A DNA stretch of 64,000 nt, from the NCBI GenBank assembly GCA_050084515.1, contig CM114271.1, positions 20,708,001-20,772,000 of the forward strand. The letters run 5' to 3'. Below are positions 3,013-54,665 of this stretch, in pieces (the stretch's first letter is position 1; every line of letters begins with the position of its first letter). The position numbers and the translations under genes were made by a program. The notes beneath the pieces are model-generated. The model made no database searches. It was not told the origin of the DNA and saw nothing but the letters and a program-made list of their open reading frames with translations. Source of the DNA: Blasia pusilla. Lineage: Eukaryota.

Positions 3013-3034
3013 GAGAGAGAGAGAGAGAGAGAGA
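3013..3034. repeat. (GA)n microsatellite
   Basis: Direct sequence. Confidence 0.9.
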
Positions 3035-4674: not shown

Positions 4675-4701
4675 CTAGAGTATTGCCCGTGCTATGCACG
4701 G
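4675..4701 (-). mobile_element. Helitron 3' terminus (hairpin + CTAG|T)
   Basis: Minus strand reads CCGTGC-ata-GCACGG gcaatact CTAG t. A second, similar 11-bp-stem hairpin lies at 4882-4906. The element body probably extends rightwards, but its 5' end was not identified. Confidence 0.7.
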
Positions 4702-22570: not shown

Positions 22571-24240
22571 AAAGTCCCATGGATCTTTCCATCTACATCA
22601 TAATACATGACACGCACGTGAACAGATGATACAGAGCGTTGACCTCGATGATGGCTGCGACGGAGCAAGCTGGCCAACTAAAGGAAAGACTCCATATTCC
22701 TGTGAATAACCAACAAATATGGAACTGTAGAGCTCAACAGTGCCAAAATAAAGAAAGTTTGATCTGAGTAGCACGTAGGAACGCTGGTCCTAGACACTTC
22801 CTCACCGTCTCTCAGCAAGCGACTTTTTCCTTTTTACTTTCTAATTCAGGTGAGATCAAACATGTTGGTGAGTGTGTTGCACTAAAGCTGTGTGTTACGC
22901 ATCAAGACCGTGTGTGAACAGTCTCTCTCAGAATTTCACAATGATGAGGGTAACTTACTCCGAATTACTGCCAAAATTACAGAGCAGGGCTTCAGAGCTG
23001 TTCCAGATGTCCAGTAGCCAATATTCAAGCTTGTGGTCTGAAATGTGCCGAGTATAGAACCCTAGATTTAAAGCCAGAAACTTCGAATTACCAAGCTTTT
23101 GGGAAATTGTGTAGTATGCAACTTCTTGGGTGACAAAGACGCACAGCTCCAACCCTCTCGGCGGTAAGGACTCAAGCTGTAGGAACGTACCTCCTCTCAT
23201 CCACAGCTTTCTTGGCTTCTACTTTCGGCACCCTCCAGTGACACTATCCAACTAGGACACAAGGTCTTTTATTCAAGGTCCTAACCGGAGCTCGAATGAA
23301 CTCTGTCTCATTCTACCTCCCAGCACATGGTACTTCATGTGATCCACCCTTACCCGGGGCACTAAAACCTTCCAACTCAGGCGCCAGGTACAGACACAAT
23401 TCTCGCAATACAGAGCACAGTGTTCGCTTGAACAACTGTGCAAGGGCTGACGGTTTTCATGTCCAGTAGATTCGAATAGCTACGTTTCTAAGCCACTGTA
23501 TGGTTGATGGACTTGAAAACATGTTGAGCACTTACTTCCCAGGACAGTGCTGTCCTGTTAAGGCTCCAAGCATCTCAGGTGATTAGGAATAACTACGAAT
23601 AGAGCGATTACAATCCCCATATCTTCTAGGGTGTCCCAAGGACAAAATTCCCTACATTCGTTCGTTTTGCGCAGTCTTCCACCAGACCTACCCCCGTTAG
23701 ACCTGCAGATTGTTTTAATGATCTCTAGACCTATGACGAGCACTAATTTACGAAAGTAGTCACTCGTGACTAACCAGAAAACTGATTCATTGCACTGACT
23801 AGATGCTCAAACCCGCAGCTTCCAACTGTCTCAAGTTCTAAAACCTCAGTGAGTGAAGATTGTGAATCCCCTTTCTGGCCAAGGCACTGCACTAGAGACG
23901 GGAGAGTGCTAGTGAACTGCTGCCCACAAATCCTCGGTCCTAGTTGGACCCGTGCCATTTGTCGCCGGAGAGACTGAGGATGTGGGCGACCAAAGTAACA
24001 CCACATTGGAACTTTCAGGTTGCGACTTTCGAAATGATGAATTCAAGTCTTTTTAGAGCCTAGAACTCCAAAGACAGGAAAGGAGAAGTCAAACTTTCGG
24101 TAGCTTTGCTGCACATTCCACTCGTCTCGGGAGTGAGGATAGTAGGTGCACTACATTCATTAATCCGTCGAAGAATCCTTCTCTCGTCACCAAATGGCAT
24201 TCAGTTTCCTTTCTCCAGTCCGTCCAACATCTTCCACAAA

Positions 24241-29933: not shown

Positions 29934-30050
<117 letters not shown>

Positions 30051-31708
30051 AGAAGATGAAGACGCCACAACAATTTAGGAGTATGAGCTCCATAAATACA
30101 CCTTCCCTCCACTGATGAGCGAATTCCGTTTCGCTTGATTATGAATGCTAGTAGAGAATGAATGTGAATAAGAGTAAGAGGGAGGTGTGAATTTTTTGCA
30201 GGAATTGGAGAATGGAGTTGATGGAACACTGATGGAGTGGTTGTTGATAGGAGTGCCGATCGAAGCCCTAGCCAAAAAGATCTACAGGAGCACAATTCCT
30301 CAATCGAGTGAAGACATGCAATACAAAAAAATAGCAGAATTAGAGCATGTGTGATCGTCACCTCACCTTAGATGATTTGATAATCGATGAAAATTATTGC
30401 TAACTGCTCGAGAAATCTACTTCACTTCTTAAACTCGAATGCTTCTCAGATGAACTGTGATTCTAGATATTTTCACTTGCATATCTACCAATTTATTTCC
30501 GGCTAAAATAGGCGGTTTCTTATCTTACCCAGTGTCACATTGAGTTGCTGTAAGAAAAATTTATTTTCTTGTGGAAGGTAAGGAACCTCCGTCATAGAGG
30601 GCCAGATGTTTCACTACGATCCATGAAAAGAAAGAGTTAGAGTCTTCTATTCGAGGGACTTCTAAAATAAAAGCAAGCTTCACTTCTTATAGAAATATAA
30701 AAAAACCTTCTTGCCACATATAGTAAGCCCCATGTTTCAATAATAGTATATATTTCCAAATGATGGTGGAAATTAGAAATAATTAACCAATTAACATGCC
30801 CATGTAAAAGTATTAAAAGTGATTTATAAATAAATAAATCTTTCAGTCTTTGATAATTTCCTCTATTCATTTTTCTTAAAAGAGTAGTAATATTTCACTC
30901 TTTTAAACAACTCCACTCCTCCATAAATTTTGAAATAACATTTTACTCTTCAACACAGGGTTAAATAATATAGGAGGTTGACAATAATGGGAAAACATAT
31001 CTACCCAATTTTTAGGGGCTACCACGGCCTACTAGACTAGTTGTCCCTCAACTTCTAAATAGAACATGTAAATCCATTTTCCTTTGCCACAACTCACGGG
31101 CAAGGAAAAAGGGTGGCTTTTAAATATCTTTTCTTTAACATGAAAGAGCTACTACAAATAGAAAATTAATAGCTACGGGTAGAAAGGAGGTTGAAATTGA
31201 CTTTCATGCGCTGCCCTCACCCAATTGGAATGCACAAGGGAGGCACATGTTTAAGAACTATGTGGGATATATATAACTCATGTGCTCATGAGGGACATAA
31301 TGATGACGTATATAAGTGCATTGCCAATGACATCATATATAAGACTCATAATAGGAGGATTTTTGAGAAAATGACCTAAAATATTATAGAAAGAATTAGA
31401 GGAAAAAAGGGGGAATGGGTGTTACATCTCAATTGCATGGAGACATGACTTGGGCATAAATTTTATCAACAACTTTGTTCCTTCATGTCAAAAATAGGTT
31501 TATTTCTTTAGAAACATATCATCAAACCTTTACAGTTGGTTCCCATATTTATATGACATTGATTTGATATTTTTTTTGGTTGTGCATACTATGTGAAATG
31601 TTAATTTAATGACGTCTTCTCCTAAAAAAAGATGAATAAATATATAGACCATTGGAATTTTCCCTCTTGCAAAAACCACTTGAGATATTTTTATTATTGA
31701 TGATCGCA

Positions 31709-31767: not shown

Positions 31768-34700
31768 GATATATCATTCAATCGAAGAGTGTTGGTGCGC
31801 CCTGCTTCCACTCTCACCTTTTGCACCAGCCATGCAGAAGGAGAGATCGTTGTAGGAAAACAATGTGGCTTTGTTGCTCATTGAGAGGATACACGATGGA
31901 TGGTTTTGGAATAATATGTTCAATTGCACATGGGAGAGTAACAAGAGTCCCCATCCAACTGCTAGAGATGGTTTGAGAGTGCTTCGAGATCCCTCAAGAA
32001 TACGGAAATCCATACGGAAAAAATATTAAATTCAAAATTTTAAATACATATTAGAAATGTCTTCTGGAAAATTCCCAAAAATTAGGTGAATTCTAAAAGA
32101 TAACTTTATACGTTATACTGAAGTGGCATACTTTTTAAGGGTTTTTTTCCCATCCTTAAGTTTAGGAATTTATTTTGTATTTTTAAAATAGGAAAATAAA
32201 TAATTTATTAGATTGATGGGGTTGCATTTCTCTTCCCGCCTTTCTATGTCTTGAGGTGGTAGCCGCTCGACGACGATCGAGTATCGTGCCGTGACACCCG
32301 TAGCCACAATGCGTCGCCAATTGTCGTGCCGTGCCGCTCGTGGCCGCATCGCACCGTCTCGATCGCGGAGCCGCTCCATCATTGGGGAGCAGATTGTGTT
32401 TTGTTGACTGAGGAGGGTATGCCGCCGAGTGCCGCATCTCATTTCTGAGTGACGTGCCGTTTGTAGCTGTTCCGTGCCGCCAATGCCGCACCGTACCGCT
32501 GGACCCGCACCGCACATCAAGGAGATTTGAGCATCGTTAGTACCAGAGGAATACGACTTGCAAGTTGGAGGACTATATCTTTACGACCAAGTTGGGATCA
32601 AGGTTTGAAATTTTTTAGGAGCAACATCGATATTTATTGTCAGGTTACCCATTCTGGTCTTTTTCCCTCCACGTGTTAGGGAATTCCGGGTATTGGGCAG
32701 TTATTTGGGGATATTGGATTTCGTGCGGATGTTGAGAGCATCATTGATGTATGGGTTTAGGGGGCATAGACCTGTGTGGGATGTCCAAAATTGAGGGTAT
32801 TTCTTGTCGATGAGATGATAGGAAAATAACTGATTTCCGCATCACGCCGCATGTTGCCGTAGAACACACGTCTCAATGAGAGAGTGTAGATTGAGTGCTG
32901 CATGTTAGATTGAGTGATTGAGTGATTACTTGCAAGGTTGAGAGTGATCACGTGAGAGGGGCATGAGCATCATCACGACGTCCTTTTGGGACTTTGAGAG
33001 GCGAGGTGGTGGACCTAAGAGGTGAGGGTTTACTCGGGGTGGTGAGAGGTTTCGAGGGTCTTCATGTGAGAGACCACCTTGATCTCCTTCTCTGTCATCT
33101 TCAAACGAGGAGGAGAGGGTAGAGGAGTGTGTTAGTGCATCACCACATAGAGTTAGTGGTCCTACCGCTTGGGAGTAGAGGACCGCGTAGGTTTCCGGGT
33201 GCTATAGGCACTATAGAGTTACACGACTTCATTGCAGAGTTTAGGAGTTGGTGTGACTCACAGCGGGGTAGGAACTCTAGAGAGTTCAACCCGTTTACAA
33301 CATGGTATGGAGGGGGCACCCATGGACGATTACCATGAGTTCTCTCATAGATATGCCCAGGAGATTGAGGTATGGAGACTCTATTATGACCCACACTATG
33401 TGTGATGGATAGAGCCATTCCCAAATGAGGAGGAGGAGTCAGGAGAGGCTACTTCCTCTTCCACCACTGATGTTTTAGGAGGGGTAACTCGCACTGGAGC
33501 AATTGCATCGTCCAGTTGGGTTCGTCCCAGGTTCAACCCCGTGGTTGAGTTCTTTGTTGAGTTACGGACGAGCTACTAGGGGGTATGGACCGAGGAGTTG
33601 CGGAACATCCATGACTTCTAGAGGCGCCTGAGTGAGAGTTTTCCTGAGGCCTACACTCGCTTGCGCCGATTGATTAACATCACTAAAGGGATGATAGAGT
33701 CCTAAACTATCCGGTGTCATGACCATACGGATTATGTCGTAGAGTATAGTGCTGGTAGAGGCCATTCCTTATGTAGGACCGTAGTGGCTTGGTAGAGATG
33801 CGGTTCCATACATAGGGTTGGGGGTTACTCACTTGGGGGTGACTTTCCCAGTAGGGCCCGCTCTTAGGTTGGAGGATATAAGGTGGCTTGCCCTCAAAGA
33901 ACGATCAATTCTTTGAGTTGAGCACATTTGCGTTGGGAGTTAGCCTTGGTAGTGAGTAGAGCTCTTGGCTATGGTGTTTCCAAGCCGACCTAGATTCTCC
34001 CATCGTGGAGTGGGTTTGGCTCGATTGTATGTGATTGTAAACGTGTTTTATGACAGTAGGTCTTTCACGGATTTCACTCAAAGAACTGGAGTAGATCGAT
34101 GGTAGCTTTGATTGTAGATCAGTAGGATCTGGTTAGGGCTGATTGTGTACTCAGCCGTGGATGTTCATGCTTGTTTCCTATGTTGGAGGTGTGAATCAAG
34201 TGCGTGGTTGGTTGGGAAAGAAGGGCCTTGCTGAGAGCTTTCCAACGCGCTGTAGATCGCCGGATTTCGTCAAGGGAGTTGGAAGTTATCAAGCATTGAA
34301 GATTCTGGTTCGTGTTCGACAGTTTTCTGATGTGGAGAGCTTGGAGTGCGGAAGCTCTGTTGAAGTTCATCCAGATCGGGTGAGAGGTTCCTATTGCTAC
34401 TTGTATTGTGATCTCATGTGAAGCTATCTGCTCGAGTGCGTGGAGCGTTATGGATTTTGCGTGCATGAAACTTGGCGGAAGCTATTTGTTGGATTTGTGG
34501 TTCTAGAGGTGTATGGACAACAAGTTTGTCTGATTTTTAGCTCGGAGTACGGAGCTCGGTTGTAGCTGAGTTTTTGTGGGGAGATAGCTATGGTGGTCAA
34601 TTGAATTCTGATCGAAACAAATTTGATTTCGGTCACGTATTTGTGAAGAAATTTCTGATCGAAATTTTGCGGATTAGCTCAAGGTCTGGCTATGGTGGAC

Positions 34701-35449
34701 AGCGGATCGGAGGGGCTGGTTGGTTGGTGACTCGTTCATTGTTGGAGAGGCTTCAAGGCAACTCGTGGTAGCTCGGGGTGAGTGGGCGTGAGAGGCGGAG
34801 TAAGGAGCAAGGAGCAAGCAAGCAAGCTTGCTTGCTTGGGGGTGAGGCAATTTTTGCAGGATTTAGGATTTGAGTTTTGCATACCTGGTCACCCATCTTT
34901 GGGCTATTCTGCCTGGAGGACGCTTAACTGCTGAGTTCTTAACTATGCCATTGTCTGCATTGTTGTAGCTCATTTGGTGCTGTTCGGAGAGGTGTTAGGC
35001 ACTTTATGCATCTCAGGTTATTGGTTGATGTACCTCTAGCGCATAGTACGGTGTAGCCTCTCCATGCAGGTGATATTTTCAGGTGCTGCGAGTTCGACTA
35101 GCACGTCATCGACCCGCGGCGGAGTAGCTATTGCGTTAGAATTGTGTGGTGGGTTTTGTGGATTCAGAGGGCACCACGTTTGGTGGATTGTGTTACCTTG
35201 ATTTCCATTTGCGATTGGAGGGTTGTCGTTGGATGTCTTGTGTTTGGATCCCCTCCATTGTGCTTCTTGCTTGCGCGCCCATTGTTAGGGTTGACGCTGA
35301 TTTCCATAGTAGTGTTACTCCTATGTGCTACTGATAGTGAGGCTGGAGTGATGACCAGTAGACCGTGGGAGTCTTCTTGTGGTGATGAGAAATTAGGTTG
35401 CCTACACCCATAGCTAGTAGAGCTACAATAGTAGAGCGACATCGACGTC

Positions 35450-38400
35450 AATTGGGTAATTTGGTGGTGGTGCGGCATCGGCGTTGGTCATCACGGAGCT
35501 GTCGGGTGGTCTGGTTGGGGACCGTGGTGCGGACAGTGGTGGTTTCACATGGAGTGGATTGAGGTATCGGCTACCTTTTCCACTTCCGACGGTTGATGAA
35601 GAGGAGGACGAGGGTGTTCCAAACACCGAGTCTTCTACGTTGTTATCGAGTGTTGCAGCTCCATTGATTTGGGATATGGACGGTGGATATGGGGCCATGA
35701 AGGGCCCACGACGATACTCGGGTGCAGTGGGCACCATTGAGTTGGAGGACTTCATGCAGGAGTTTGATACGTGGTGTGATATGTAGATGTTGCGGAACGC
35801 CACGTTGTTTACACCCTTCTTGGCTTGGAAGGGGTTATTTCAGCACTTGGAAGGACCACCCATGGATGATTACCATGAGTTTAGGAAGGACCATGTTGCT
35901 GAGATTGAGGCATGGAGACAATATTGGTCTCCAGGCTATGTGTCTATCACCCATGGTGGTATTGGTAGTAGTGCTCCTACTATGCCCCCAACCCGGCCTG
36001 AGTGGTGGCAGTACGAGCCGGAGTGGGGTACGGTGGAGGTACTAGTGGGGGTACTAGTGGAGGTACTAGTGCCCCACCATCGTTTAGCCCGGTTGCAGAG
36101 TTCTTCAAGAGGTTGAAGAAGAATTATCAAGGAGTGAAGACGGAGAAGTTGAGGAATCTTCAGGACTTTGAGCGAAAGACTGGTGAGAGTCTTCGTGAGG
36201 CATACACGCGTATGCGACGCTTGATTTCAATTACCCAGGGTGTGACTAAGGATCAGGCAGTCCAGTTTTGGTATGGGATCTTGGACAGAGATTTGCGCCG
36301 TAGGGTACGTGATGCTACTCTTATGAGTGATGATTCACCCACATTGACCCATGTGTTTGCTCTATCTGAGAAGATTGAGCTTAACATGGTGAAGGAGAGA
36401 GTGGTGACATCCGCATTCAGTAGGGATACAACTACTACTTCTCGTGTTCAACCGCCCACCTCACAGTCTCGTAGTAGTGGTGGTGGTAGTAGAAGTGGGA
36501 GTCGTGGGGGGTACACGCGACCTCAATCAAGTCCTAGAGGGACATTTGTGCAGAGACCATTGCCTTCATTTGCTGCCGGCAGGCGATCATGTTGGACATG
36601 TGGAGGTGATCATGTTAGGAAGTTTTGTCCCCAAGAGGATGGGAGACGGACTTTGGAGGATGGGCCTCGTCGGCCCCAACTCAGTGTGATCATTGCGGGA
36701 GACTAGGTCATCCTCGAGCGTTGCTTTGATCTTCATCCGAGTTGAGATCGGGCCGTGGCCGTGGTGGAGTAGCTCCAGAGGCCGAGGTGATAGAGGTGGT
36801 AGGGGTGGTAGAGGTGGACCAGTGGTTGGAGAGCCTACGGTGGCTACCCCTACCACTACGACAGTCACTATGGTCGCCAGGATTGAGCTTGATTGGAGCA
36901 GAAGTTGGCTACTATGGGTCGGGTATCTAGCGTAGATCAGGTTCGGGAGAGGGGCTTCCACCTCTTATGGAGGGATGATCTCTCTTATATGGCGAGTGCA
37001 AGACAAAGTTGAGGCATCACCTGCATTACGAGAGGAGCCACTCGGCGTCGAGCCACGTGGTGCTCTTGTGGAGTTGGACCCTGAGGGGTGAGGTTGGGAG
37101 GCGGCTAGGCTTCCCCAATCATTCTTGTTGTCGAGGTGCTTAGGACTCCATCCATGGTTCCTAAGCCAGCCTATTGAGCCGACAGTGGGGACTGAGGCAT
37201 CTACATCGCGTGTAGTAGACACGGATCGCAAACATCTAGTGTGATTGCGGATGGCAACCGGTGTTGGGATCCCCATTGTTTTCGCCACGGAGTCGATGGC
37301 TTTAGGAGTTGACTTAGCTCTGTATTTCAACTTGCAGCCACCTTGTGTGAACGTGGGGGTGTTACTGCTACACGTGTTGAGGTGAATGAGGATGTTGCGG
37401 TGGAGCGACCCTCTATGTCAGGAGTAGCATTGAGTACCAGTGCTACTTGGCAGGCAGCGGCGGCGAAGATGGATGCATTACCCGGCCCGGCCAGCCATTG
37501 ATCGTGAGAGGCTTACACTGGTGTATGTATGTTGGACAACCGGAGTGGGATCTTCCGATTGGTGAGTCCTACAGGCAGTGTATAGACCAGATAGAGTCTT
37601 GTTAGACTCAGGTGCCCGACCTTTGATGTTGGGAAAGGCGGCATGTATTGGTTTGGGTATTCGGAGGTCACGGCCTTGAGCCTTGCCCATTCGATTCAAA
37701 CATCACTTGGAGGAGCCAATGATAGGTCTCAATTCATGACACGGGAGAAGTTTTCATGCAGTTGAGACCAGATCATGCGACCGATAGCTCCCGGTTGGGA
37801 GTATCTGACGGTAGTCACATCACCAAGTCGTATGATGTACTAGTTGGAGGAGCGATGATTGTACCCGATGGGTTTTCAGATGGATTCTTCGGATCGAGAC
37901 AGCGTCTTATAGACCAGGTTGGCAGTCGAGGATGGACGTATGAGCCAAGTTCTGTGAGATTTATTTCTGGGGCTCGACCAGAGGGTCTTCCCAACAAAGT
38001 GTTAGCATCTGTGGCTGGTTTTAGTGGAGTAGTCACTTGGCCAAGAGACTTTTGGAGGGTAATGTTTCTACTATGGATTCTCTCGCATGAGAAGGTAGAG
38101 GAGGTCCCTATTTTTGCAGTGGCATCCTCATCGTTGGATGTGCCACTTTGGAGTTCAGGCGGTGCACTACGGCAGAGGTCGATCACCTAGTGCGAGGAGA
38201 GGCTTGGTGTGAGGGTCATATACCTCACGAGGAAGAGGAGGCCCCACGGTGGACTCCTACTGCCCAGCTTGATTAGGTTATCCCTTTGGATACTACACCC
38301 ATTGTATGGCAGTATCCGCCGGAGGGCATTTGTGTGTTAGATCTCTTTGGTGGGATTAGCACTGGTTTGGCGGCAGTGTTGCAGGCCGGTATTCATGTGC

Positions 38401-41400
38401 GGAGATACGTGTATGTGGAGCGAGATGAGACGGCCCAAAGAGTCTCATCCCGACATATTGGTCAGTTGATGCGGAGATATCCTGAGTTGTTGCCGCCATT
38501 AGCTATTCCTGGGTACCAATGTGCTTTACCATCACACATTGCATTGTTAGGAGTGCAGGACCTTGAGAGGGTTGGTCCTGTGGATTTGGTGATTGCTGGA
38601 TGGCCATGTCAGGGTCATACACGTGCTGGTCGTGGTGAGGGATTACATGACCCTAGGTCTCGATTGTTTTGGGAGATGTTACGGGTGTTACGACATCTTC
38701 AGGTTCATCAAGCACGTGCTCTAGCTTACATTCTGGAGAATGTTCCATTGTTGGGTGACACTCGGACCCGGATGATGGCGAGTGTTCATGAGGTGCGGTC
38801 TTGGATTGGACCAGCGGTGTTGTTGGATGCAGCGCGAGTTGGCTCGCGTGCACATCGTCCACGCTTGTGGTGGACAAACTTGTTGCCTAGGGAGGTTCTA
38901 CGTCGAGCATATGATGCAAAGGCGGCGGGATCCGCCTTCAAAGTGGATAGTATCTTGAATCTTGGCGACTTTCTCAAGTGGTGAGGGTTATTGATCGGTC
39001 ACCCATGGCGGTGGTGAACCGTGTGGGCCGACCTAGGATGGCACTACCCACATTTGTGAGTTTTCCGCGTCACATGCCTACAGGGGAAGGTGGTCGGGGC
39101 TTGTATGGGATTCTCATGTGCGGCAGTTGGTGGAGCCTAACGTTGATGAGAGAGAGCGTGCGATGGGATTTACTCTTGGCGTGGCGGTTGCTTCTATTTA
39201 CGAGGCTTCACGACGTCATGTGTTGGGTGAGGCCATGGACCTGAATTGTTTGACTTGGATTTTGAGTCTTGGTATGGCCAAGGCGTCGACTTCGGACTAT
39301 GTCGTGGGTCTTCCACCCTTGTAATGAGCTCGATGGCTACCGGGACGGTAGAGGCATCGGTCAGCGCAGGAGAGTAGTATTTTGCATCCTTGGAGTAAAT
39401 GGGATGTAATGGTTGGGCATGTGGAGTTGGTTGCTCATCTGGTGGAGGAGTTATTTGCTCGGATGATGGTGTAGCTAAGGGTGTATCATCTTGTGAGGGG
39501 GTTGCGAGCGACCAATGGCATCGTCCTCTCCCTCTAGTATGCCAGTGGAGGAGACTTGGGAGCCATTACTTGGGCCCAAGCTTACGGGGGAGGTGAGAAA
39601 CGACGCTGACACGGTTCCTACGTGCTTATAGGAGTTGTTTTGTCTTTAGCATGAAGGAGTTGGGTTCTCTGGTTGGACCGGTATACGGATTGATTTGGCT
39701 AGTGATACGCCAATCTTCCGTCGTCCCTACCGATATAGTGATATGGAGAGGGACCTGATTGAGTAGGACGTTGGACCTTTTGGAGGCTGGATTAGTGGAG
39801 TTGTCGCATGGAGAGTATGCATCGCCACTATCATGCACGCTAAAAGGATATGCATGGCAACTACACGGATAGGCGGATGTGTGGAGATTACCGCCCTATC
39901 AATCGGCAAACCAAGGCCGATAGGTATGCCATGCCTACACGAGGAGATCTTTGATGTGGTGGGACAGCAAAGATTTTCAGTACTTTGGATCTTGAGGCAG
40001 GATACCATCAATTGCCGATTTGGGAGAGTGACAAGGCCAAGACAACATTTTGGGGTGTCAACTCTCATGGCAAGGGGATTGTTTGTACAAGTGGAAATTC
40101 TTACCCTTTGGGTTGAAGAATGCACCTGCCGAGTTTCAAAGAGTGATGGACAGGATCCTAGCAAGGTTGGATTTTGTTCGGTGTTACATTGATGATATCT
40201 TGGTGTTCAGTAATACGGTGGAAGAGCATCAGATACATTTGCAGATGGTGTTTGAGCGGTTGAAAGCTCATGGTCTACGTTTGCATCCAGGAAAGTGTAA
40301 GTTCTTCCATGAGGATGTTGAGTACTTGGGTCATGTGATATCTCCAGGTGGTTTGGGAGTTCAGCAAGCAAAGGTGGAGGCTATTGCACTTATTCCGCGT
40401 CGGGTAGATGTAAGTAGAGTTCGAGCATTCATGGGATTGGCGAACTACTATCGGAGGTATGTGAAGGGATTTATTGCTATGGCAAAGCCTTTGAACCAAT
40501 TGCTGAAATCAGACCAAGAGTGGCACTGGGGAGATGATCAGGAGAGAGCTTTTGGGGAGCTTAAGGCCCAGTTGGTGGCGGCGCCTATCTTGAGGAGACC
40601 TATCAGAGGGCGCCCATTTCAGTTACACACTGATTGGAGTAGGTTGGGACTTGGAGTGGTGTTGACACAACATGATGATGAGCACATGGAGTTTGTGGTG
40701 GCCTATGCAAGTCGTTCGAATAATGCAATGAGTCACGCGCTATAGTTCATATGAGGGAGAGTGCTTGGCAATAGTGTGGGTGTGGCACACTTTAGGTGTT
40801 ACTTGTTTGGCACACAGTTTACCCTTGTTTGATCACCGGCCGCTCAAGTGGTTGATGGAGTCGGACAAACTTACAGGGAAGCTTGCACGATGGGCTCTTA
40901 TCTTAGAGGAGTATGACTTCCGGGTGGTACATAGACTGGAGTTGCCAACCTTGATCTTTGATGGGTTGAGTAGGAACCCATGTACTAGCCAAGAGGATAC
41001 AACTGGGGCTAGATGGCATGGCAAGGTTGATGAGGAGATGGTGCCAGGTTGGCATGCATCCGCCTTTTATGTTGGTTAGGGGTGGACTCTAGTATGGAGG
41101 ACCACATGATATCTTACTCTAGTCGAGAGTAGATGGCGACCTTCGATCCTAAGGTTGGAGATGGTGGTACGGATCAAGGTGATATTCATGATGATGCGTT
41201 GGTGTTGGAGTTCCTACGGACCAGTAGGGTGCCAGGCATAGTGAGTGCCAAGGAGCGAGACCGTGTTCTTCAACGTGCTAAGAGGTATAGATTGGAGGGA
41301 ACACATATTCTCCCATGTGGGAGGATGTTAGAAATGCAGTAGTGCCACATTTGGCTCAGAGAGAGCGCATTGTGCGACATGCCCATGAGGAGTTGGGACA

Positions 41401-42605
41401 TTTTGGGATAAAGCGTGCGTATAGCTTACTCCTTGGCGTATTGGTGGCGTGGCATGCATACTCAGTGCAGCGATTGGTGTCACGTTGTATGGTTTGTGAC
41501 CGGGTGAGGGCATCATTTAATGCCCCTACACCACAATTACACCCCTTGCCTATTATGGGGTTGGGTTACCGTTGGAGTGTGGACTTTTTGGGACCGTTAC
41601 CATTGGTATGCGACATCATTGATATGTGTTGGTGATGGTGGAGCACTTCTCCAAGTGGATTGAGTTGGTGGCATTACCGGACAAGGCAAGTGAGGAACGG
41701 CGTATGCGTTTTGGATAGAGTGCTTAGTCATTTTGGTGCAATGGTGAAGTCTTGACCGACCGAGTCTGAGTTTGGTGGTGAGTTTTAGGTCTTGTGTGAC
41801 AAGGCATTGATTGATCATCGGACCACGTCTCGAGATCATCGAGGCGGATGGTTTGGTGGCGTGTGGTTCAGGCGGTGAAGAGGGCATTGCGCAAGTATGG
41901 CCTCTGAAGGGCATCTTAGGAGGATATTCGGTTGCCATGGTTAGCCATGGGGTATAGGTTCAGTCGCCAAGCATCCTTGGCTTCCTTCTCACCTTATTTT
42001 CTGTTATACGGCCGTGATCCAGACTTGCCAGCAACAATTCGTCGGGAGTCTAGTGAGGTGGTGGACCTTGATGACCCAGAGATGTGGATGAGGGTGTGTT
42101 CTCAACGGGCGGAGCTCTTTCGGAGAGTTATGCCAACAGCCTTTGAGAATCTTGCCATTGCTCAACACAGGGATACGTTGCGGTATGCAACCATTCGGGG
42201 TGGGGGCTATCAACCATCGATTCGTAGGTTCCATGTGGGGGACTATGTCTATTTGCAGCAGATTGCCCCGACAACGTTGGATGTGACGGCAGCGCACTAT
42301 TTTACGAGTGCGTGAGGTATTAGCTTCTAGAGTTCTCATGTTGGAGGGTCGTGATGGAGTTGTTTGGAAGGACCATGTGCATAATTGTGCGCCATGTCAT
42401 CTTCCAAATGTGGATGGTATCTTATTGACCCAAGCTTAGCCATGATACGTGCTAGCTTGAGGTGCATGTTGTGTGGGTCTGCTTTGTGTAACGCACCCGT
42501 ATGTTGGTGTGTGATCGGTGTTCTAGGGGTTGGCACATGATGTGTTTGACTCACGTTTGGATGTTGTTCCTCTTTGGAAGGTGGGTTTGTCCTCGATATA
42601 CTTAG
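35450..42605 (+). pseudogene. gag-pol polyprotein of element A
   Basis: Gag (FQHLEGPPMDDYHEF; knuckle CWTCGGDHVRKFC), protease VLLDSGA (~37600), RT LPFGLKNAPAEFQR..YIDD (40100-40200), RNase H FQLHTDWS, integrase HHCC (HAHEELGHFG..CMVC) with core WSVDF, and a degenerate PHD at ~42463-42597. Confidence 0.9.
38325..39240 (+). pseudogene. DNMT3-like C5-cytosine DNA methyltransferase domain within the element A polyprotein
   Basis: Motif I VLDLFGGISTG, II YVERD, IV DLVIAGWPCQG, VI YILENV, VIII RAHRPRLWWTNL, IX ERERAMGF and X RHVLGEAM, in linear order. Confidence 0.9.
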
Positions 42606-44837
42606 GAGAGGTAGATGACTTGATCTTTGCATGATATGGATTACGGATGTGCGACTAACGACGGGCAACCTAGCACCGGCCTTCGATTCGGGCACCCAAG
42701 AAGGTGTATAGCATGTAGTAGATGTATAGGGCTACAGGAGTTAGAGGGACCTAACCGCCTTGATTAGGGGGCGAGTTGTGGTACACTTGCGTTTGTGGAT
42801 ACTCTCGTCTATGTTATGTATGTATGTGAGTATGGTATGTCGATGATGTATGTTGTATGGCGATGGGGATTCGCACGACAATCATCATGACCATACGGAT
42901 TATGTCGTAGAGTATAGTCTTTGGTAGAGGCCATTCCTTATGTAGGACCGTAGTGGCTTGGTAGAGATGCGGTTCCATACATAGGGTTGGGGGTTACTCA
43001 CTTGGGGTGACTTTCCCAATAGGGCCCGCTCTTAGGTTGGAGGATATAAGGTGGCTTGCCCTCAAAGAAACGATTAGTTCTTTGAGTTGAGCCTGCTTGC
43101 GTTGGGAGTTAGCCTTGGTAGTGAGTAGAGCTCTTGGCTATGGTGTTTCCCGCAAGCTTCGACCTAGATTCTCCCATCGTGGAGTGGGTTTGGCTCGATT
43201 GTATGTGATTGTAAACGTGTTTTATGACAGTAGGTCTTTCACGGATTTCAAGTTGTGGTACACTTGCGTTTGTGGATACTCTCGTCTATGTTATGTATGT
43301 ATGTGAGTATGGTATGTCAGCGATGTATGTTGTATGACGATGGGGATTCGCACGACACCCGTCATACGCGATGCTGGATGGAATCCTACAAACACGGTGA
43401 TATGGGTGCGAGAGGGGGTGCTTCTTATGAACACCTCACCTACATTGAGGGATGTTTTTAGGACCGCCAAGAATATTGAGTGCAACATGGTGGAGGAGAG
43501 CGTAGCCACCATGAGTTCTGGGCGAGATCAGTTACGATTGCCTACACCACCAGTGCAGCAACGTGGATTCCGCGATAGGTCTGTGGCACCACGAGCTCAG
43601 GGAGGATACCAGGAGGCCATGCCACAAAGACCTGCGCCTTCATATGCGGCTCAAAAGTAGCCGCCTATGATGATTTGTTGGGCATGTGGTGAAGCCCATC
43701 ATTAGCGTGATTGCACTCGTCAAGGTCATGGACGCGTGCCTCAACATGGAGGAGGAGATGGTGCTGCACTTGGAGGTTATTGGCGTGATTATTGTTAGAG
43801 GAATGGTCACACACGCGCCATGTGTTTCAGCTTATACCAGCTTATGTCCGGACCGAGGGCCAAAGAGGGCACGAAAGTGAGTTGCCGGTCCGGGTTTGCC
43901 TAGAGATCCTGCACTAGGTGGTCACGTTGGGAGACGAGGAGCTAGATTCGCTCAAGGGGGTCGTGGAGGAGGTAGAGTCCCACCATCTAGACACCTCGAG
44001 GGAGACGCCAAGCAGGAGGTTGGGATGACTGCTCAGACAGAACAACTACAACACCAGATTTCTGCTATGGCATTGAGGCTACCCAATGCCGGATCCGTGG
44101 CATCGACGTCTTATGGAGCAACCAGAAATATGGAGGATCATGGTTGGATATGCGGGGTTGCCCAAATGGAGGCCACCGCAATTGTTACGTGTGGAGCAAC
44201 CGCAGAGTTGGATCCACACGAGGGGAAGCCAGCAAGCCGACTAGGCTTCCTCAATCTTCACATTGTCTTAGGCGATGAGGACCCCATCGACGGGTCATGC
44301 TTAGAGTTCCCAGAGAGTTGGTGATACTATTGGTGTGCACACATGGAAGCGAGTGCAATGACTCCTATTGCTAATGCTCAGGAGGAGCATATGTCAAGCA
44401 CATTGTTGGGGGTGGTCACTATTGTGTACCGCGCTCCTTTATTTTCTGCTTCCGATGTTATGATGTTGGAAGGTACGCCTGCCGAGGTTTTTTGGCTGGC
44501 CGCTACGTTATGTGATCGTGGATTTGGTGTTCCTACGTCACACTCAAGGGTGATTGTAGAGGAGGTGATGTATCTGCCCTTGGAGCTTATGCTCGGGCCG
44601 TCCACGTCAGATTCATGGCAGGCTGTGGCTGCTAGGATGGCGGAGATTCCCGTTAGACCCATGATAGAATATGCCATGGCTTCTCTTGGTGTTGTGTTGC
44701 TGGATAATCGGGGAGCGGTCTTCCACTTGGTGAGTCCAGGACGTAGAGTTTTTAGTCCGCAGCGTGTCCTATTGGATTCGGGAGCGCAACCCCTGATGTT
44801 GGGGAAAGCGACATTAAAAGTTGGGCTTGACAAGAGC

Positions 44838-45480
44838 TGTCGTGCGCATACAAATTGCTGCATAACATACATCGCTGTCACCAAACACACACACAAACAT
44901 ACACAATCCCAAGCTAACTCATGACATCCAAACAACGAGACAAGAAGTACCAAAATATCTCCAATAAATCAAGATCCAATCTCTCTCAACACCATATCTC
45001 TCAAATGTGTGCACTCCCATATGTCTTTCTCAATGTCAAACCAAACCCACTCTCCTAATGAGAGGCTTGGGTTACACAGAAAAGGCAAGCAAGACCATAG
45101 CTCTGCTGCCTCATGCCAAGAGGTTCAACAATGAAAGAATGAGCTCTCAAGCTCTCTCTCCTTGAGGTATACCCCTCCCCTCTCCCAAGCTCTCTCCATG
45201 GTAACCTATGCTCCCAAGTCACCTCCTTGGCTCTTGACCTGATGTAGGAGGTCAAAGGCCACTTACCAAAAATATAAAGTCGACCATATACTCAAAAGGA
45301 TACTTACCTAAAATAATAAGTTTCTCAATATGGCTCCAAATCAACCGAAACGAAGGGGAAACATGCTCTCTCAGGTTTCCCGGGGCCTCAGCAAGTCATC
45401 ATCGACCTCGTGAGCCTGTCCTCCACTACTAGCAAAGGCGCTCTACTAGATCTCACCGATATATCCTAAAAGACGTGATA
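44838..45480 (-). mobile_element. Solo A+B terminal-repeat unit of the element B family, with 4-bp TSD GAGC
   Basis: Highly similar to 53568-54209. GAGC at 44834-44837 and 45481-45484. Host codons GLTRA|DVERC rejoin across the insertion. Confidence 0.92.
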
Positions 45481-48400
45481 GAGCCGACGTGGAGCGTTGT
45501 TCATTCCGGATATAGACATCCTTGGATGGAGCAAGTACCACACAATATATCACCCAACAGGAGGTCGTGATGAGGATTCGTTTGAGACATCCTACAGATG
45601 AGTCCGTGGTGCAAGCCAAGGCGATAGTGACCGATGTAGAGTCCTACGACGTCTTGGTTGGTGGAGCAATGTTGTACCCTATGGGATTTTCCCTATATTA
45701 CTGGAAGGAGTCAGCGTCCTACAAAAAAGGATGGTGGTCCAGTGATGGACGAATTTGTCCATTATTCGTTCGATTCATAGGTGGAGTGATCGAGCGACGG
45801 CCACTAGAGATGGCGACTTTATCAATATTTAGCAACGCCATCAGGTGGCCTTCTAATTTGATTGAGGGCATTGTCATTGCATCAGGGCATTTCCGGGCCG
45901 ATCCATGCATGAGGGCATCGTCTAATTTGATCCATGGATCGGCCGGACAATGTTGTTGGATGCGGCGAGTGTAGATTCACGAGCACATCGCCCGCGTCTT
46001 TGGTGGACAACCTTGGTGCCACATGAGGTTTTTCCGAGGGCATGCGTGAGAGTGGAGTGCCCCTCCCATTTTTTGGTGGATTCTATTATGGATCCAAGTC
46101 GTCGATCACAGGGAATACGACACGATGATCGACCTTCTTTGACTATGGTCAACAAGATTGGCATGCCACGAGCTGCCTTTCCCACATTGGTGAGTTTTCC
46201 CGCTTCCTATGCATTCAAGGAGGCCGGGCCTGGCTTGGTTTGGGATGACCAGGTATAGCGGTTGGTGGAGCCCAACGCTGATGAGCGAGAGCGAGCGATG
46301 GGATTCCCCACAGGAGTGTCGGCACTACCGTCACTATGAGAGGCATCACGACATCATGTCTTAGGTCAGGCAATGGACCTGAACTGCTTGATATGGATTT
46401 TCAACTTAGGAGTAGCTAAGCAAGGTCATTTGAGGATGCAACAGATCATACCTGTTGCGTTGGTGAGCCCAATGCCTACCGAGACGGTTGAGGGAGTGGC
46501 TGGGGGCGAGACCTCAAGAGCTCAATACACCAGGGGCATGGTTGCACAAAAATGGACAAGTCCTTCCTTAGGATGGACATGGACGGATACACCAGTTCCT
46601 TAGGAGTTATAGGAGTTTTTTTTGCATTCAGGATGTATGATTTGGGTAAGGTGAAGGGTCGAGGGATCCACATTGAGTTGTTGAGTGACACGCCGATCTT
46701 CTGGTATAGGATCCTACAGGTACAGTGTCATGGAGAGGGCTCTTATTCACAGTGGGAGCTAGGACTTGGTTGGAGCAAGACTAGTGAAGATGTTGCATGG
46801 AGAGTATGCATCTGCCACTATCATGCCCGCCAAGAAGGATGTGCATGGCAATTGGACGGATAGGCAAATGTGTGGAGATTACCGACCTATCAATCGGCAG
46901 ACAAAGTTTGATAGGTATGCCATGCCCACGCCTTAGGAGATCTTTGATGCTATTGGGCATGCAAAGGTCTTTAATTCTTTAGATCTTTGAGCGAGATACC
47001 ATCAACTGCCTATCTGATTGGAGGACATATAGAAGATGATATTTTGGGGCATCAATCCTCAAGGGAAGGATTGCTTATACTAGTGGCGGTTCTTACTATT
47101 TGGGTTAAAGAACGCCCCGTGTGAGTTTCAGAGGGTCATGGATAGGATCTTGGCAGGTCTGGATTTTGCTAGGTGTTATATATATGACATCGTAGTCTTT
47201 AGCGCCAAGGTTGAGGAGCATGAGCGACACTAGAGGAGGTATTCCGACAATTGCAGTTACATGGGTTGAAGCTACATCCAGACAAGTGCAAGTTCTTCTA
47301 TGACCAGATTGAGTACCTAGGTCATACGATATACCTAGGGGGCCTTGGTGTGCAGCTGACGAAAATAGAGGCCATTTCAAGCATTCCACGCCCTACAAAT
47401 GTGAGTCGAGTTTGAACATTCATGGGATTGGCAAACTTCTATCGACGACACGTCAAGGGTTTCAGTTTGATTGCGAAACCGCTTATCAAGGTGGATCAAG
47501 AGTGGCATTGGGGGATGAGGAGGAGAGAGCATTTTAGCTGCTCAAGGACAGATTGATATCCGCGCCCATATTGATCGAGGAAACTGATCAGAGGGCCTCC
47601 TTTCCAGTTGCATACCGATTGGAGCATGTTGGGGCTTGGAGCCATGCTCACCCAACATGATGATGATGGTAGAGAGTTCGTGGTGGCTTATGCTAGTTGC
47701 TCAAACAACGCTGCAGAGGCGAAGTATAGCTTGTATGAGGGTGAGTGCTTGGCTGTGGTCTGGGTTGTTGCACATTTCATGTGTTATCTATTCAAGAACC
47801 CCTTTACCATCATTACAGATCATCAACCACTTAAGTGGTTGATTGAGTCTGACTTAAGTGGTTGATGGAGGTTTCATCAGGGAGACTATGTCTACTTGCA
47901 AAAGATGGCATCCACGACGTTGGATGTGACTATAGGGCGCACCATCTTGAGAGTGCGTGAGATTTTTCCATCTTGTGTTCTCTTATTGGAGGGACCATGT
48001 GCATAATTGTGCGCCATGCCACCTTCCTAACATTGATGGTATAGTTGATTCGAGCTTAGCAGTAGTTCCTATAGGCTTACGATGTATGTTGTGCGGTTCC
48101 GCTTGTGGTGCAGCCACTATGATAGTTTGTGATGATTGTTCAAGAGGATGGCATATGGCATGTTTGACGCCACCTCTCACTAGGGTTCCTCAGGGACGAT
48201 GGAAGTGTCCCAGATATACATAGAGTAGGTAGTTCTAGATTCCGACTTGTGTTTGTGACATGGATGACAAGAAGGCGACCAATTATGGGTCTCGAACCCC
48301 GATGTATGGCTCAAAGTTGGATCCAAATAGGATAAAAATATTTCTAGCATGGACTCCACACTTATGGACAATCTCCATGGTAACAAACAAGGCAACCAGA

Positions 48401-50142: not shown

Positions 50143-51060
50143 GCGCCCACCACCTAGACGCGTCAAGGGAGACGCCGGGTGTGAGGCTAGGATGACTACT
50201 CAGATACATCAGCTACAAGAGCAGATTTCCGCTATGGCATTGAGATTACCCGATGCCGGATCCGTGGCATCGACATCATATGGAGCAGCCAAAGATATGG
50301 AGAATCCTAGTTGGATGTGCGGGGTTACCGTGATGGAGGCCGCGGTAGTTGTGACGCGTGGAGTAGCCGCAGAGTTGGATCCACAGTGAGGGAAAGCGAG
50401 GAAACATACTAGGCTTTCTTCAGTCTTTCACGTTGTCCGAGGCAATGAGGACCCCATCGATGGGTCTTGATCAGACTTCCTAGAGAGTTGGTGATGTTAT
50501 TGATGTGCACGCACGAAGGGCGATGGGAGAAGCGAGTGCGATGACTCCTATTGCTCATGCTCAGGAGGGGCATGTATCGAGCACGTTGTTGGGGGCGGCC
50601 ATCGTTATGCATGGAGTTTGAGTTCTTGCATCACGTTCAGAGGTGATTGCAGAGAAGATGATGGACCTGCCCTTGGAGCGGATGCTGGGGCCATCCACGT
50701 GAGATTCATGGCAAGCTGCGGCTGCTAGGATGGCAGAGATGCCCACTAGACCCGCGATAGAGCGTGCCATGGTTTCTCCTGGTGTTGTATTGCTGGATAA
50801 CCGGGGAGAGGTCTTCCAATTGGTGAGTCTCGGAGATAGAGCTTTTAGTCCGCAGCGCATCTTGTTGGAGTTAACGTCCTACATACAAGGATGGCAGTCA
50901 GATGATGGGCGCCTTATCTCATTACCCGTTCGATTCACAGGTGCAGTGGTTAAGCGACGGCCAGGAGAGATGGCGAACTTAGCAGCATTTAGCAATGCCA
51001 TCACTTGGCCTAGTGATTTGATTGAGGGACATGTCCATGCAGAGGATACTCCCGTGTGGA
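50143..51060 (+). mobile_element. Additional internal fragment (gag end/protease region) of the element B family
   Basis: QIHQLQEQISAMALRLPDAGSVASTSYGA and PGVVLLDNRGEVFQLVS match ORFs 59735-60454 and 59474-59707; internal deletions are present. Confidence 0.85.
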
Positions 51061-52647
51061 GCGAGATGTTTGCACGAAGTGCATATAAATTGGGTGGTTA
51101 ACGCAGAAATCTCACGTCAACAAAGAATTGATCGGGCAAGTCAATCGTGGTTGATCTGCTTCATTGACATGTACGATCGAGGAGAGCTTATTCACAAAAT
51201 TTCCATAGATCTCCAAAATCGAGAGGTGGAAAACTTTTTCTTTGTGCAAGGGTTACATCCACAAGAAGTTCGGGATGCCTTTAACACAACTCGACAACTT
51301 GTCCTAAAAAATCATCAAAATCCATTGATAGATAATCTTTTCTTGAGGAGACTCGAATTGATTTTTCCACATTTCTTATGGCAAGATATTCCTCAAAGGA
51401 TGGAAGGGGGCTATTCACGAATATACCATTACCCTCGTCCAATGCAACAGGAAATTTTCAACATTGAGGGATGTTGTCAACACGGGAAACATAAGACATA
51501 GCTGATGGTGAAACCAATGTTGTATTGGATAGGACTATTCCTTGTGGAGGGGAAAAACACATTATTAGAGCTAGGGAAAGAGTTGGTGAGACCTCTGAAC
51601 CGGTGTAACATATATCCGATCATGAATCATATTAGATAGAATGAGTTTGTGGTTATATCTCTGTAATATATATAAGCATGAGGTTCCTCTTAATCCACAG
51701 GTTGTTGGGTACTACCCATTTTTATAAAAAATATATATAATTTTCTTCTTGAAAGTGACTTAGTTCTACAATCTTATGGACAAATGCCACACCCCTTGAG
51801 AAAAGTTCAATGCATGTTTTTGCATGATGTTCTATGGATGGGGATTTTGAGTTGGAGGGTAATTAGGAGTTGGAAGATTAAGAGTTGAATTACCTTCAAA
51901 ATAGAAATTTCAACCTTATTGATTCCTACTATTATAGGCATTTGCTAACTTTGAAGACATGTGAATGTGAACTTGTTAGGAAAACTGTTCATGAAGTTTT
52001 CTAAGTTTTCTGTAAGGTTATCCTTGGGTAAGGTGGAAATGTGCATTTGATTAAAAAGAATTATATCTCTATTTACTATAATTAAATAATTTTGCATATT
52101 TCCAAAAAAATCAATTTATATTTTACAAGGAGATAAAATTTATTAGTTTCCTTGAATTATATTCTTAACTTTAACCTTTGTACCTTTATTAAACTGAAAA
52201 GTAGAACAAGCATAAGGATTTAATCATTAAAATATTATAAATTATTTAAAAATAAAATTTTATGAAGTACTATAATTTATTTCATATTTTGGCAAGAAAT
52301 AGTAAAAGAAAATGTGAGAGTGTGTCCAAACAAGAAATCTTCTTTAAAATTCTGAAAAATATCTACTTGAAATCTTAAACTAAATGTGTGACTGGGAAAT
52401 ATCCTTCAAAAAACATGTCCACATTTTTTTAAAACTCTTAAAGTCAAGGGCATGGTTAATTCTAATCTTATTTTTATGATTTCTTGTGCAGTTTTCCTAA
52501 CCTTTCGAGAATTTATTTAAAATTTCATATTTTCCAATATATTTTTAGTACTTTTGATGGTCTATTGATCCGTTGTAGGGGTATAGTTTCTTTCTAACTA
52601 GTCTTTATTAGGTTCTAACATTATGAAGCCTTTTAGAATTACAAATT

Positions 52648-53099: not shown

Positions 53100-53567
53100 A
53101 AAGATAATTCATAGGAAAACTCTAAGAAAAATGGAGTTGTGATGGAAAGCTCGAAACTATTTAAATGGTTTTTGCACCCGTGCGATTAGACCTTCTTCCA
53201 AAAGAAAGTTTCTCTATTTTTCATCTTGTTAAGGGATCTTATCTTGACCTGATGTTTAGGACACTTGATCCTTAAGGTGTATTTAGACTTCTTGAAAATT
53301 TTGAAGCAAAATAAAGTTGTGACCAAAATCTCAAATCTATTTCAGTGGTTTATGGACTTGAGCAATCACACCTTCTAGCAAAAGATACTCTTTCCAATTT
53401 CCATCTTGTTCAAAGAGTTCATTTTGTCTTGAAATTTGTGCCACTTGATCCTAAAGGTGAATTAGAGTTTCTGCAAAGTTTCAAGTACAATGAAGTTATA
53501 AACCAGAGTCCAAAAATCTCTAAATTTTTTTGGACCTATACGATTAAACCTTCTTGGAGAAGAGGGT
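53100..53567. repeat. Degenerate ~180-bp tandem repeat, continuing at 63817-64000 beyond element B
   Basis: Homologous anchor motifs at 53136, 53316, 53495 and 63928 (equivalent to 53675 once the insertion is removed). Confidence 0.65.
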
Positions 53568-54529: not shown

Positions 54530-54665
54530 TGTACATCTGGGACACATCCATCGTCCCCAAGGAACCCTAGTGAGAGGTGGCGTCAGACATGCCATATGCC
54601 AACCTCTCAAACAACCATCACAGACTAGCATCGTGGCTGCACCACGGGCAGAACCACACAACATA
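54530..54665 (-). other. PHD finger at the integrase C-terminus
   Basis: CMLC..LVCDGCLRGWHMACLTPPLTRVPWGRWMCPRC is a complete Cys4-His-Cys3 pattern. Confidence 0.92.

Follow-up and report, generated by a model that had tools for sequence, protein, structure and literature searches.

Here, we report three dead Ty3/Gypsy-type long terminal repeat (LTR) retrotransposon copies of two diverged families, each with DNMT3-like C5 cytosine methyltransferase (DNMT) sequence, in a 64,000-nucleotide (nt) stretch of Blasia pusilla (GenBank assembly GCA_050084515.1, contig CM114271.1, positions 20,708,001 to 20,772,000, forward strand), hereafter the window. Features are listed by window position in Table 1; related loci from metagenome contigs (74 in all) bear L numbers, and related proteins bear P numbers. 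Element A sits within gag of element B, as seen by self-comparison and from the homologous site in element C, which is uninterrupted. Elements B and C and fragment D form one family (about 82 to 89% nt identity), and element A represents a second (66 to 79% nt identity to C); over the DNMT itself, A and C are 66% identical and B and C are 82% identical. In each copy, a protease (PR) with the LLDSGA active site lies upstream of the DNMT, and reverse transcriptase (RT), RNase H (RH), and integrase (IN) lie downstream; the domain order PR-RT-RNaseH-IN with a DDE integrase, as in Ty3/Gypsy, was recovered with Pfam and tblastn.

Table 1. Features of the window, with the elements first and all other features last
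Feature	Position	Strand	Evidence or remark
Element A, whole, 9,643 bp	33715-43357	+	Self-blastn; comparison with uninterrupted homologous site in C
A: target duplication	33711-33714 / 43358-43361		CCGG / CCCG
A: repeat A1, 5' terminal, starts TGTCATGACC	33715-34076	+	95.4% identical over 368 nt to 42885-43250
A: gag, CCHC knuckle	35676-36739	+	PF03732 (Retrotrans_gag) E=0.002, weak, below cut-off; tblastn to Marchantia proteins, 62-79%
A: aspartic protease region (LLDSGA), with stops	37587-37875 (active site within 37587-37661)	+	tblastn with PR of L047
A: DNMT3-like C5 cytosine methyltransferase domain	38277-39270	+	Motifs I, IV (PCQ), VI (ENV), VIII, IX, X
A: remnant of conserved stop, G-AG CGA CCA, 1-nt deletion	39499-39514	+	Alignment; relatives have TAG CAA CCC/A
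A: RT and RNase H	39606-41312	+	PF00078 E=3e-25, PF17919 E=5e-17 on 40032-40745; tblastn
A: integrase (H2C2 zinc domain, core) and degenerate C-terminal PHD finger (42495-42593)	41291-42593	+	PF17921 E=7e-5
A: 3' terminal block	42774-43357	+	B1 42774-42880, junction 42881-42884, A2 42885-43250, B2 43251-43357; B1/B2 94%
Element B, interrupted by A and by a solo A+B repeat in inverted orientation	32244-48289	+	Self-comparison, tblastn
B: PR	44754-44807 and 45486-45689	+	tblastn
B: DNMT, C-terminal half only	45935-46510	+	Self-comparison, tblastn, alignment
B: PHD finger	48032-48211	+	tblastn
Solo A+B repeat of C-like family, inside PR region of B	44838-45478	inverted	86% identical to 53568-54208
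Fragment D, gag-PR piece of C-like family	50146-51068	+	Repeat search, self-comparison, tblastn
Element C, whole, 10,249 bp	53568-63816	-	Self-comparison
C: target duplication	63817-63820 and 53564-53567		ACCC
C: terminal repeats	A1 63300-63816, B1 54213-54373, junction GC, A2 53694-54210, B2 53568-53693	-	A repeats 96.1% identical, 515 nt
C: aspartic protease (VLLDSGAQPLMLGK)	59300-59638	-	LLDSGA active site; tblastn
C: DNMT3-like domain, one frame, five in-frame stops	57830-58921	-	Same motifs as A
C: conserved stop TAG, then CAA CCA (putative leaky stop)	57633-57635	-	Alignment
C: RT (frameshifted), RNase H (55970-56506), integrase core (55283-55702)	54527-57570	-	PF17917 E=2e-32, PF00665 E=9e-10
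C: C-terminal PHD finger of integrase	54539-54718	-	PF00628 E=2e-10
Peroxidase gene	1-753 and 1648-2142	-	PF00141 E=1e-18
GC-rich block (0.51-0.55), long open frames; possibly another repeat	10283-13544	+	No Pfam match
Other, unrelated LTR-type retroelement remnant	13600-15208	-	Protease PF13650 E=2e-6
417-aa frame	21344-22597	-	No homologue in search, no Pfam family
Dinucleotide microsatellite, (SL)n in one frame	29950-30060	-	

In copy A, the stop-to-stop frame 38277-38984 holds VLDLFGGISTG (motif I), GWPCQGHTRAG (IV), ILENV (VI), and GSRAHRPRLWWTNL (VIII) and matches PF00145 (E=5.1e-10; 39.7 bits against a cut-off of 22). Motifs IX and X (PTFVSF.., ERERAMGF.., GEAMDLNCLTW) fall in two other frames (38951-39244 and 39037-39324), and the domain is therefore read as carrying two frameshifts, near 38961-38968 and 39058-39061. 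In copy C, the stops sit at codons that are read as Q or W in relatives; one directly follows the catalytic PC, in place of the Q of PCQ, and the ENV is kept. Searched singly against Pfam, the fragments of C gave no match for DNMT because the stops cut the domain. Motif I (FxGxG), the catalytic Cys of motif IV (PC), and the ENV of motif VI, in the motif naming of C5 cytosine methyltransferases, are all present in A and in bryophyte relatives.

Judged from match ranks in the PDB and from the predicted fold, the element-borne enzyme is DNMT3-like. A single-sequence search against the PDB ranked DNMT3A first (1.3e-12), together with DNMT3B and DNMT3C and followed by DRM (2.2e-5) and M.HaeIII (7e-5). 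A profile of 16 relatives gave DNMT3A (3e-27), DNMT3C (3e-25), DNMT3B (2e-24), DRM (6.5e-17), and M.HhaI (1.5e-8), with no DNMT1 or chromomethylase (CMT) at ≤1e-3. An intact relative (L003:9896-11242) was modeled with AlphaFold2 (mean predicted local distance difference test score, 78.6; 259 of 449 residues at ≥90, with most of the core above 90), and all PDB matches listed by Foldseek for this model (to rank 50) were DNMT3A/B/C catalytic domains (template modeling score, TM(target), mostly 0.77 to 0.83; E about 5e-19). In the alignment, motifs I-IV-VI-VIII-IX-X run in linear order, without the permutation found in DRM, and can be aligned with the Marchantia, Calypogeia, and metagenome copies; open reading frame (ORF) 1 of the intact locus L047 also matches PF00145 (E=1.8e-13, 51.1 bits). 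The animal DNMT3A/3B/3C catalytic domain is thus the best sequence, profile, and fold match and shares the linear order I to X, but at 20 to 23% identity, and the window domain is part of a Gag-PR polyprotein without an adjoining PWWP or ADD domain. No such reader domain was found in L047 ORF1, where Pfam gives the protease and PF00145 only, and the PR-DNMT pieces of the window contained no further Pfam family.

An earlier note on this DNA, made from the letters and their open reading frames, had assigned C5 methyltransferase motifs to A and C, had recognized two diverged families with a partial third copy, and had judged the domain to resemble DNMT3 rather than DRM. The coordinates and the motif reading proved correct in both copies, and the PF00145 search bore it out for A; B indeed retains the C-terminal half of the domain, and PDB ranks, Foldseek ranks, and linear motif order all favor DNMT3 over DRM.

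Relatives of the domain were found in bryophytes, green algae, and metagenomes. Among longer proteins, 29 were related to copy A at E≤1e-3, including many Marchantia polymorpha "hypothetical proteins" (57 to 77% identity) as well as proteins of Calypogeia fissa and Sphagnum; two Marchantia gene models join DNMT, RT, and RNase H. Matching cluster representatives numbered 3774 at E≤1e-3 and 648 at ≤1e-10. Ten long representatives came from metagenome sources only, and the Protein Atlas returned generic PF00145 clusters only, mostly with viral or bacterial labels. On the sequence matches, this kind of element is evidently common in mosses and liverworts. The family of A is also well represented in sequencing runs: 230,033 contig pieces of run X1 were ≥90% identical to element A, and near-identical 31-mers of it (34077-42884) occurred in DNA runs of several organisms (coded A to F) and in air metagenomes. 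These counts are consistent with a very abundant family common to close relatives, the number of contig pieces being no copy number. Three further runs (X13, X14, and X18, guessed to be of RNA type) include contigs 90 to 99% identical over most of element A, including the DNMT, which does not in itself show transcription.

Ratios of nonsynonymous to synonymous substitution rates (dN/dS; Nei-Gojobori method, NG86) were low in the DNMT. Between L047 and L053, both intact, dN/dS was 0.15 for DNMT (367 codons), 0.04 for RT-RH, 0.03 for IN, and 0.20 for the PR region; between L003 and L033, it was 0.18 for DNMT. The window copies, whose values also take in decay after insertion, gave 0.16 (DNMT) and 0.11 to 0.20 (RT) for C versus A and 0.33 (DNMT) and 0.24 to 0.25 (RT) for C versus B.

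Related proteins of ≥900 aa show two domain orders, Gag-PR-DNMT-RT-RH-IN (as in the window) and RT-RH-DNMT-IN-PHD, the latter including green-algal proteins of Cymbomonas tetramitiformis and Chlamydomonas eustigma. The two orders fall apart in a quick maximum-likelihood tree of 148 DNMT domains (66 PR-DNMT-RT rows versus 79; Shimodaira-Hasegawa-like approximate likelihood ratio test [SH-aLRT] values, 85 and 94), which places the window copies in a 21-row clade (SH-aLRT 100) with Marchantia, Calypogeia, and Sphagnum. An RT-RNase H tree of 56 proteins is split by domain order in the same way (9 versus 47 rows; SH-aLRT 98). Because the RT and DNMT trees agree, the methyltransferase has long been carried along with its element. 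Both trees are midpoint rooted and cover DNMT-bearing Gypsy elements, so they do not give the number of acquisitions. The DNMT is an inherited module of a family under purifying selection. Copy A was 72 to 78% similar in the DNMT to moss and liverwort copies alike (P0013 and P0026 of Sphagnum; P0002 of Calypogeia; P0005 and others of Marchantia) and stood nearest to Sphagnum rows in the tree; slow evolution and transfer between bryophytes are candidate causes.

An in-frame stop between DNMT and RT is conserved across these elements. At L047, ORF1 (976-5082; 1369 aa; protease and PF00145) closes with TAG, after which the same frame goes on as ORF2 (5086-8226; 1047 aa), which encodes RT, RNase H, integrase, and a PHD finger; L053 likewise has an intact ORF1, TAG, and an intact same-frame ORF2. 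We surveyed 48 copies with an RT anchor by walking upstream in the RT frame to the first stop, which fell at one homologous place in 38 of them, 63 or 84 nt before the anchor. The stop and its context read TAG CAACCC in 23 copies, TAA CAACCC in 10, TAG CAGTTA in 2, and TAG CAATCA, TAG CAACCA, and TAA CAACCA in 1 each. Sublineages with DNMT identity as low as 46 to 63% share this stop. Three Marchantia models (P0005, P0007, and P0004) finish shortly after the DNMT, and at least 12 distinct metagenome protein clusters of about 1330 aa finish right after it. In tobamoviruses, UAG CAR YYA serves as the motif for type I readthrough (PMC3542737). From these sequences, we infer that the conserved stop is a putative programmed readthrough signal through which Gag-PR-DNMT would be made in excess over RT and IN.

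On this reading, with the UAG lying between DNMT and RT in relatives and in copy C, ORF1 (Gag-PR-DNMT) has the enzyme as its C-terminal domain, and the enzyme is not an internal part of Pol. The earlier note had placed an inherited methyltransferase within Pol, between PR and RT. Its position between PR and RT stands, its place in Pol does not, and inheritance as opposed to one-off capture is upheld by the agreement of the trees and by dN/dS values that indicate purifying selection. The conserved stop, the integrase PHD finger, and the split repeats go beyond that note.

The PHD finger lies at the C-terminal end of the integrase. That of copy A was found by tblastn with the PHD finger of L047 (E=1.4e-9), which itself matches PF00628 (E=2.6e-10) in ORF2, and a PHD finger is also present at the integrase end in the RT-RH-DNMT-IN-PHD elements. 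Chromoviruses (10.64898/2026.05.21.726589) resemble these elements in having a domain of histone-reader type at the integrase C terminus; their reader is a chromodomain, whereas that of the window-type elements is a PHD finger.

At their ends, the elements have direct repeats that are split, in the arrangement A1-coding-B1-NN-A2-B2, rather than two plain LTRs. Elements begin with TG(TCATG..) and finish in ..GCACGACA, giving TG..CA ends flanked by 4-bp target duplications. In A, the purine run TTAGGGGGCG precedes B1 (..AGGGGGCG at the end of the run), and the B repeat finishes in GCACGACA; just past A1, where an LTR retrotransposon would have its tRNA primer binding site, the sequence (CTCAAAGAACTGGAG...) does not open with TGG. 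L037 and L038 show A1..B1-NN-A2-B2 with target duplications AAGG and CATA, respectively, and B1/B2 pairs are also present in L024, L040, and L045. The B1-NN-A2 junction (42774-42884 in A; 54211-54373 in C) reads as the 3' end of the element followed, after about two bases, by its 5' end. It looks as if the junction of a circle or of two joined ends had been stored, much as DIRS elements do in their internal complementary region, despite the DDE integrase and the target duplications. Where DIRS elements have a tyrosine recombinase, the elements here have integrase domains (PF00665 and PF17921) and target duplications.

The elements are depleted in CpG, with observed/expected ratios of 0.62 to 0.75 in the window elements and 0.28 to 0.69 in relatives versus 0.76 to 0.91 in the rest of the window. 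Their coding strand is G rich and C poor, with a GC skew between +0.20 and +0.26 for A, C, and L037 and between +0.11 and +0.17 for L047, L053, and L033, which are more intact; the skew is near 0 in the rest of the window. T exceeds A on the coding strand in most elements (A, C, and L037; not L033), and CpA is overrepresented (1.36 to 1.56) above TpG (1.13 to 1.33). This composition is a strand-asymmetric mutation or selection pattern.

Elsewhere in the window, the C-terminal part of the peroxidase gene passes at 1-321 into a long tandem array, (NNNQGG)n in translation, and its second piece (FHDCAVQ) gave no Pfam match when searched alone. The RT of the unrelated retroelement remnant at 13600-15208 is 25 to 28% identical to the RT of the DNMT elements, and no methyltransferase was seen adjoining it. 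A land-plant source of the DNA is indicated by the peroxidase and by the relationship of the transposon proteins to those of bryophytes.

Two systems with transposon-borne DNMT3 were found in the literature, in Klebsormidium and in Symbiodinium; this search covered passages of text, and figures and supplements may contain more. KnitGypsy-Dnmt3 of Klebsormidium nitens combines Gypsy domains with a DIRS-like repeat structure and Ka/Ks values of <0.2, the DIRS arrangement being given as "A-coding region-B-A..." (de Mendoza et al. 2018, PMC5890265), and later work cites these elements as "streptophytes (Gypsy-DNMT3)" (10.64898/2026.05.21.726589). It shares with the window elements the Gypsy composition, an intron-less, unrearranged DNMT3-type domain in the polyprotein, A-coding-B-A-B repeats, and low Ka/Ks (0.15 to 0.18 in the relatives here). 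The oddity of split repeats is common to the window elements and the Klebsormidium Gypsy-Dnmt3 and is the main argument for a single lineage. No Klebsormidium protein appeared among the named matches of the protein searches. By this analogy, the window elements are a land-plant (bryophyte-type) branch of the KnitGypsy-Dnmt3 kind. The host of KnitGypsy-Dnmt3 is a charophyte alga, whereas the window type has a land-plant host and named relatives in liverworts and mosses, and the text consulted on KnitGypsy-Dnmt3 makes no mention of a leaky stop, a protease-adjoining DNMT, or an integrase PHD finger. Within the same scope, we found no description of land-plant copies, bryophyte ones included, of the DNMT-RT stop, or of the integrase PHD finger, in keeping with the earlier note, which was not aware of such elements being well characterized in land plants.

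In SymbioDIRS-Dnmt3 of Symbiodinium, the retroelement polyprotein likewise includes a domain of DNMT3 type, the direct repeats are split, and selection is purifying; two of its copies methylated CG de novo in yeast (PMC5890265). It is a DIRS element with a tyrosine recombinase, however, whereas the window type has a DDE integrase (PF00665) and 4-bp target duplications. The elements of Cymbomonas tetramitiformis, Chlamydomonas eustigma, and metagenomes have a related DNMT (32 to 33% identity; profile E values from 1e-99 to 1e-109) together with Gypsy RT/RH/IN, and their integrase likewise ends in a PHD finger, but their DNMT lies between RNase H and integrase and they fall on the opposite side of the split in both trees. 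Leaky-stop expression of the tobamovirus type (UAG CAR YYA; PMC3542737) offers a parallel in that the upstream ORF is made in excess over the downstream enzymes. In leaky-stop gag-pol the stop comes after Gag, whereas in the window type it comes after PR and DNMT.

Taken together, we consider it probable that the elements are a bryophyte-type branch of KnitGypsy-Dnmt3 with Gag-PR-DNMT as the first frame, for which we propose a model of readthrough and complementary DNA (cDNA) methylation. Ribosomes would mostly stop at the UAG to give Gag-PR-DNMT and would occasionally read through to give Gag-PR-DNMT-RT-RH-IN. The methyltransferase would thus be made at Gag-like rather than Pol-like amounts, enter the particle with Gag, and be freed by the protease. 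It may then methylate the newly made double-stranded cDNA of the element, a function that we put forward tentatively, as possible rather than probable. Such methylation would probably be at CG, as with DNMT3 and SymbioDIRS-Dnmt3, and would occur before or at integration. The integrase PHD finger may read the state of the histone H3 tail and steer insertion, and the new copy would arrive already marked like resident methylated DNA.

Several points weigh against this reading. All three window copies are pseudogenes (A with two frameshifts, C with five stops, and B without the N-terminal half), and a stop-free frame spans the whole DNMT in only 5 of the 58 metagenome loci examined (L003, L033, L047, L049, and L053). 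The exact UAG-CAR-YYA occurs in only 5 of 47 junctions, copy C among them; the commonest context, CAA CCC (33 of 48), differs from CAR-YYA in its final base; TAA accounts for 11 of the 38 conserved stops; and a more distant group that shares the domain order (P0047 and its relatives) was called as a continuous 2188-aa protein with no stop there. The DNMT3-like label derives from PDB match ranks and fold, and the assignment to the KnitGypsy-Dnmt3 kind derives from a common architecture and repeat arrangement. That the enzyme is packaged, that it methylates cDNA, and that the PHD finger guides targeting are inferences. This lineage is not known to have enzymatic activity, and the sole related experiment, with the Klebsormidium domain in yeast, gave no methylation; its authors call it inconclusive because human DNMT3B also failed there (PMC5890265).

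Among other explanations, the enzyme might be active with the chromatin of the host, rather than the free cDNA, as its main substrate, be it at the insertion, in its surroundings, or in trans; there it would make a heterochromatic niche together with the PHD finger or limit copy number by self-silencing. The histone-reader type domain on the integrase, the CpG depletion of the elements, and their nesting in one another are in line with this, and effects on insertion-site chromatin and slower retrotransposition are options discussed by de Mendoza et al. (2018; PMC5890265). These data fit cDNA methylation equally well, however, CpG depletion is expected of any methylated transposon, and if the enzyme served self-silencing, purifying selection on a gene of the element would be hard to explain, unless the element gained in fitness over the long term; on balance, action on host chromatin seems unlikely. 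A domain that no longer methylates DNA, acting instead on RNA or RNA/DNA hybrids or as a noncatalytic structural or binding module of Gag-PR, would suit the lack of observed activity of the Klebsormidium domain in yeast, the sharing of ORF1 with Gag (an RNA binder), and the many relatives with an unusual motif IV that has E for P (ECQ/A in 13 of 42 rows in PR-DNMT order and 44 of 64 in RT-RH-DNMT-IN-PHD order). The bryophyte clade nevertheless keeps the catalytic Cys, the ENV, and the S-adenosylmethionine-binding motif I, the whole predicted fold, target-recognition part included, matches DNA-bound DNMT3A/B, and dN/dS is 0.15 to 0.18 across the whole domain, which makes loss of DNA methylation quite improbable.

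The stop after the DNMT could also be damage inherited from a dead master copy, with no programmed readthrough signal. The stop-bearing copies are mostly decayed, and the TAA stops, the inexact context, and the stop-free group described above would agree with such damage. A null stop before RT and IN would keep the family from spreading, however, and L047 and L053 have, in the same frame after the stop, an intact 1047-aa ORF2 with dN/dS of 0.03 to 0.04; the stop also sits at the same codon across the diverged sublineages, and protein clusters end right after the DNMT. We regard inherited damage as very unlikely. Nothing was found in favor of an assembly chimera or of a one-off host DNMT fragment nested in a transposon, and both are refuted by the same in-frame domain order in the three window copies and in the 74 loci from other contigs, by the annotated Marchantia, Calypogeia, and Sphagnum proteins, and by the congruent RT and DNMT trees; the chance of either is negligible.

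The proposed branch with its readthrough and cDNA-methylation model bears on a question that has stood since 2018, namely, why a transposon keeps, under selection, a class of enzyme that hosts use to silence transposons. So far, the sole streptophyte case is that of an alga not easily manipulated, whose enzyme yielded no result in yeast. Marchantia polymorpha has related copies, annotated as hypothetical proteins, that look partly intact, and these move the question into bryophyte models. Transformation, mutants, and methylomes exist for M. polymorpha. Experimental handles are the Gag-PR-DNMT frame closed by a conserved UAG of leaky type, the integrase PHD finger, and the split repeats that copy the joined ends. 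For annotation, many bryophyte gene models labeled "DNA (cytosine-5)-methyltransferase" are transposon genes. In its full form, which we hold to be rather doubtful, the proposal is that of an old green-lineage Gypsy clade with an epigenetic kit of its own, a DNMT3-like writer and an integrase PHD reader, in which the leaky stop of the bryophyte type would bring the writer to Gag-like amounts; this branch is abundant in bryophytes, including the genetic model Marchantia polymorpha, and the particle-borne writer would methylate cDNA before integration, so that insertions would be premarked. If true, transposons of this kind would have the strategy of putting the silencing mark of the host on their own DNA, which would be open to study for the first time in a tractable land plant.

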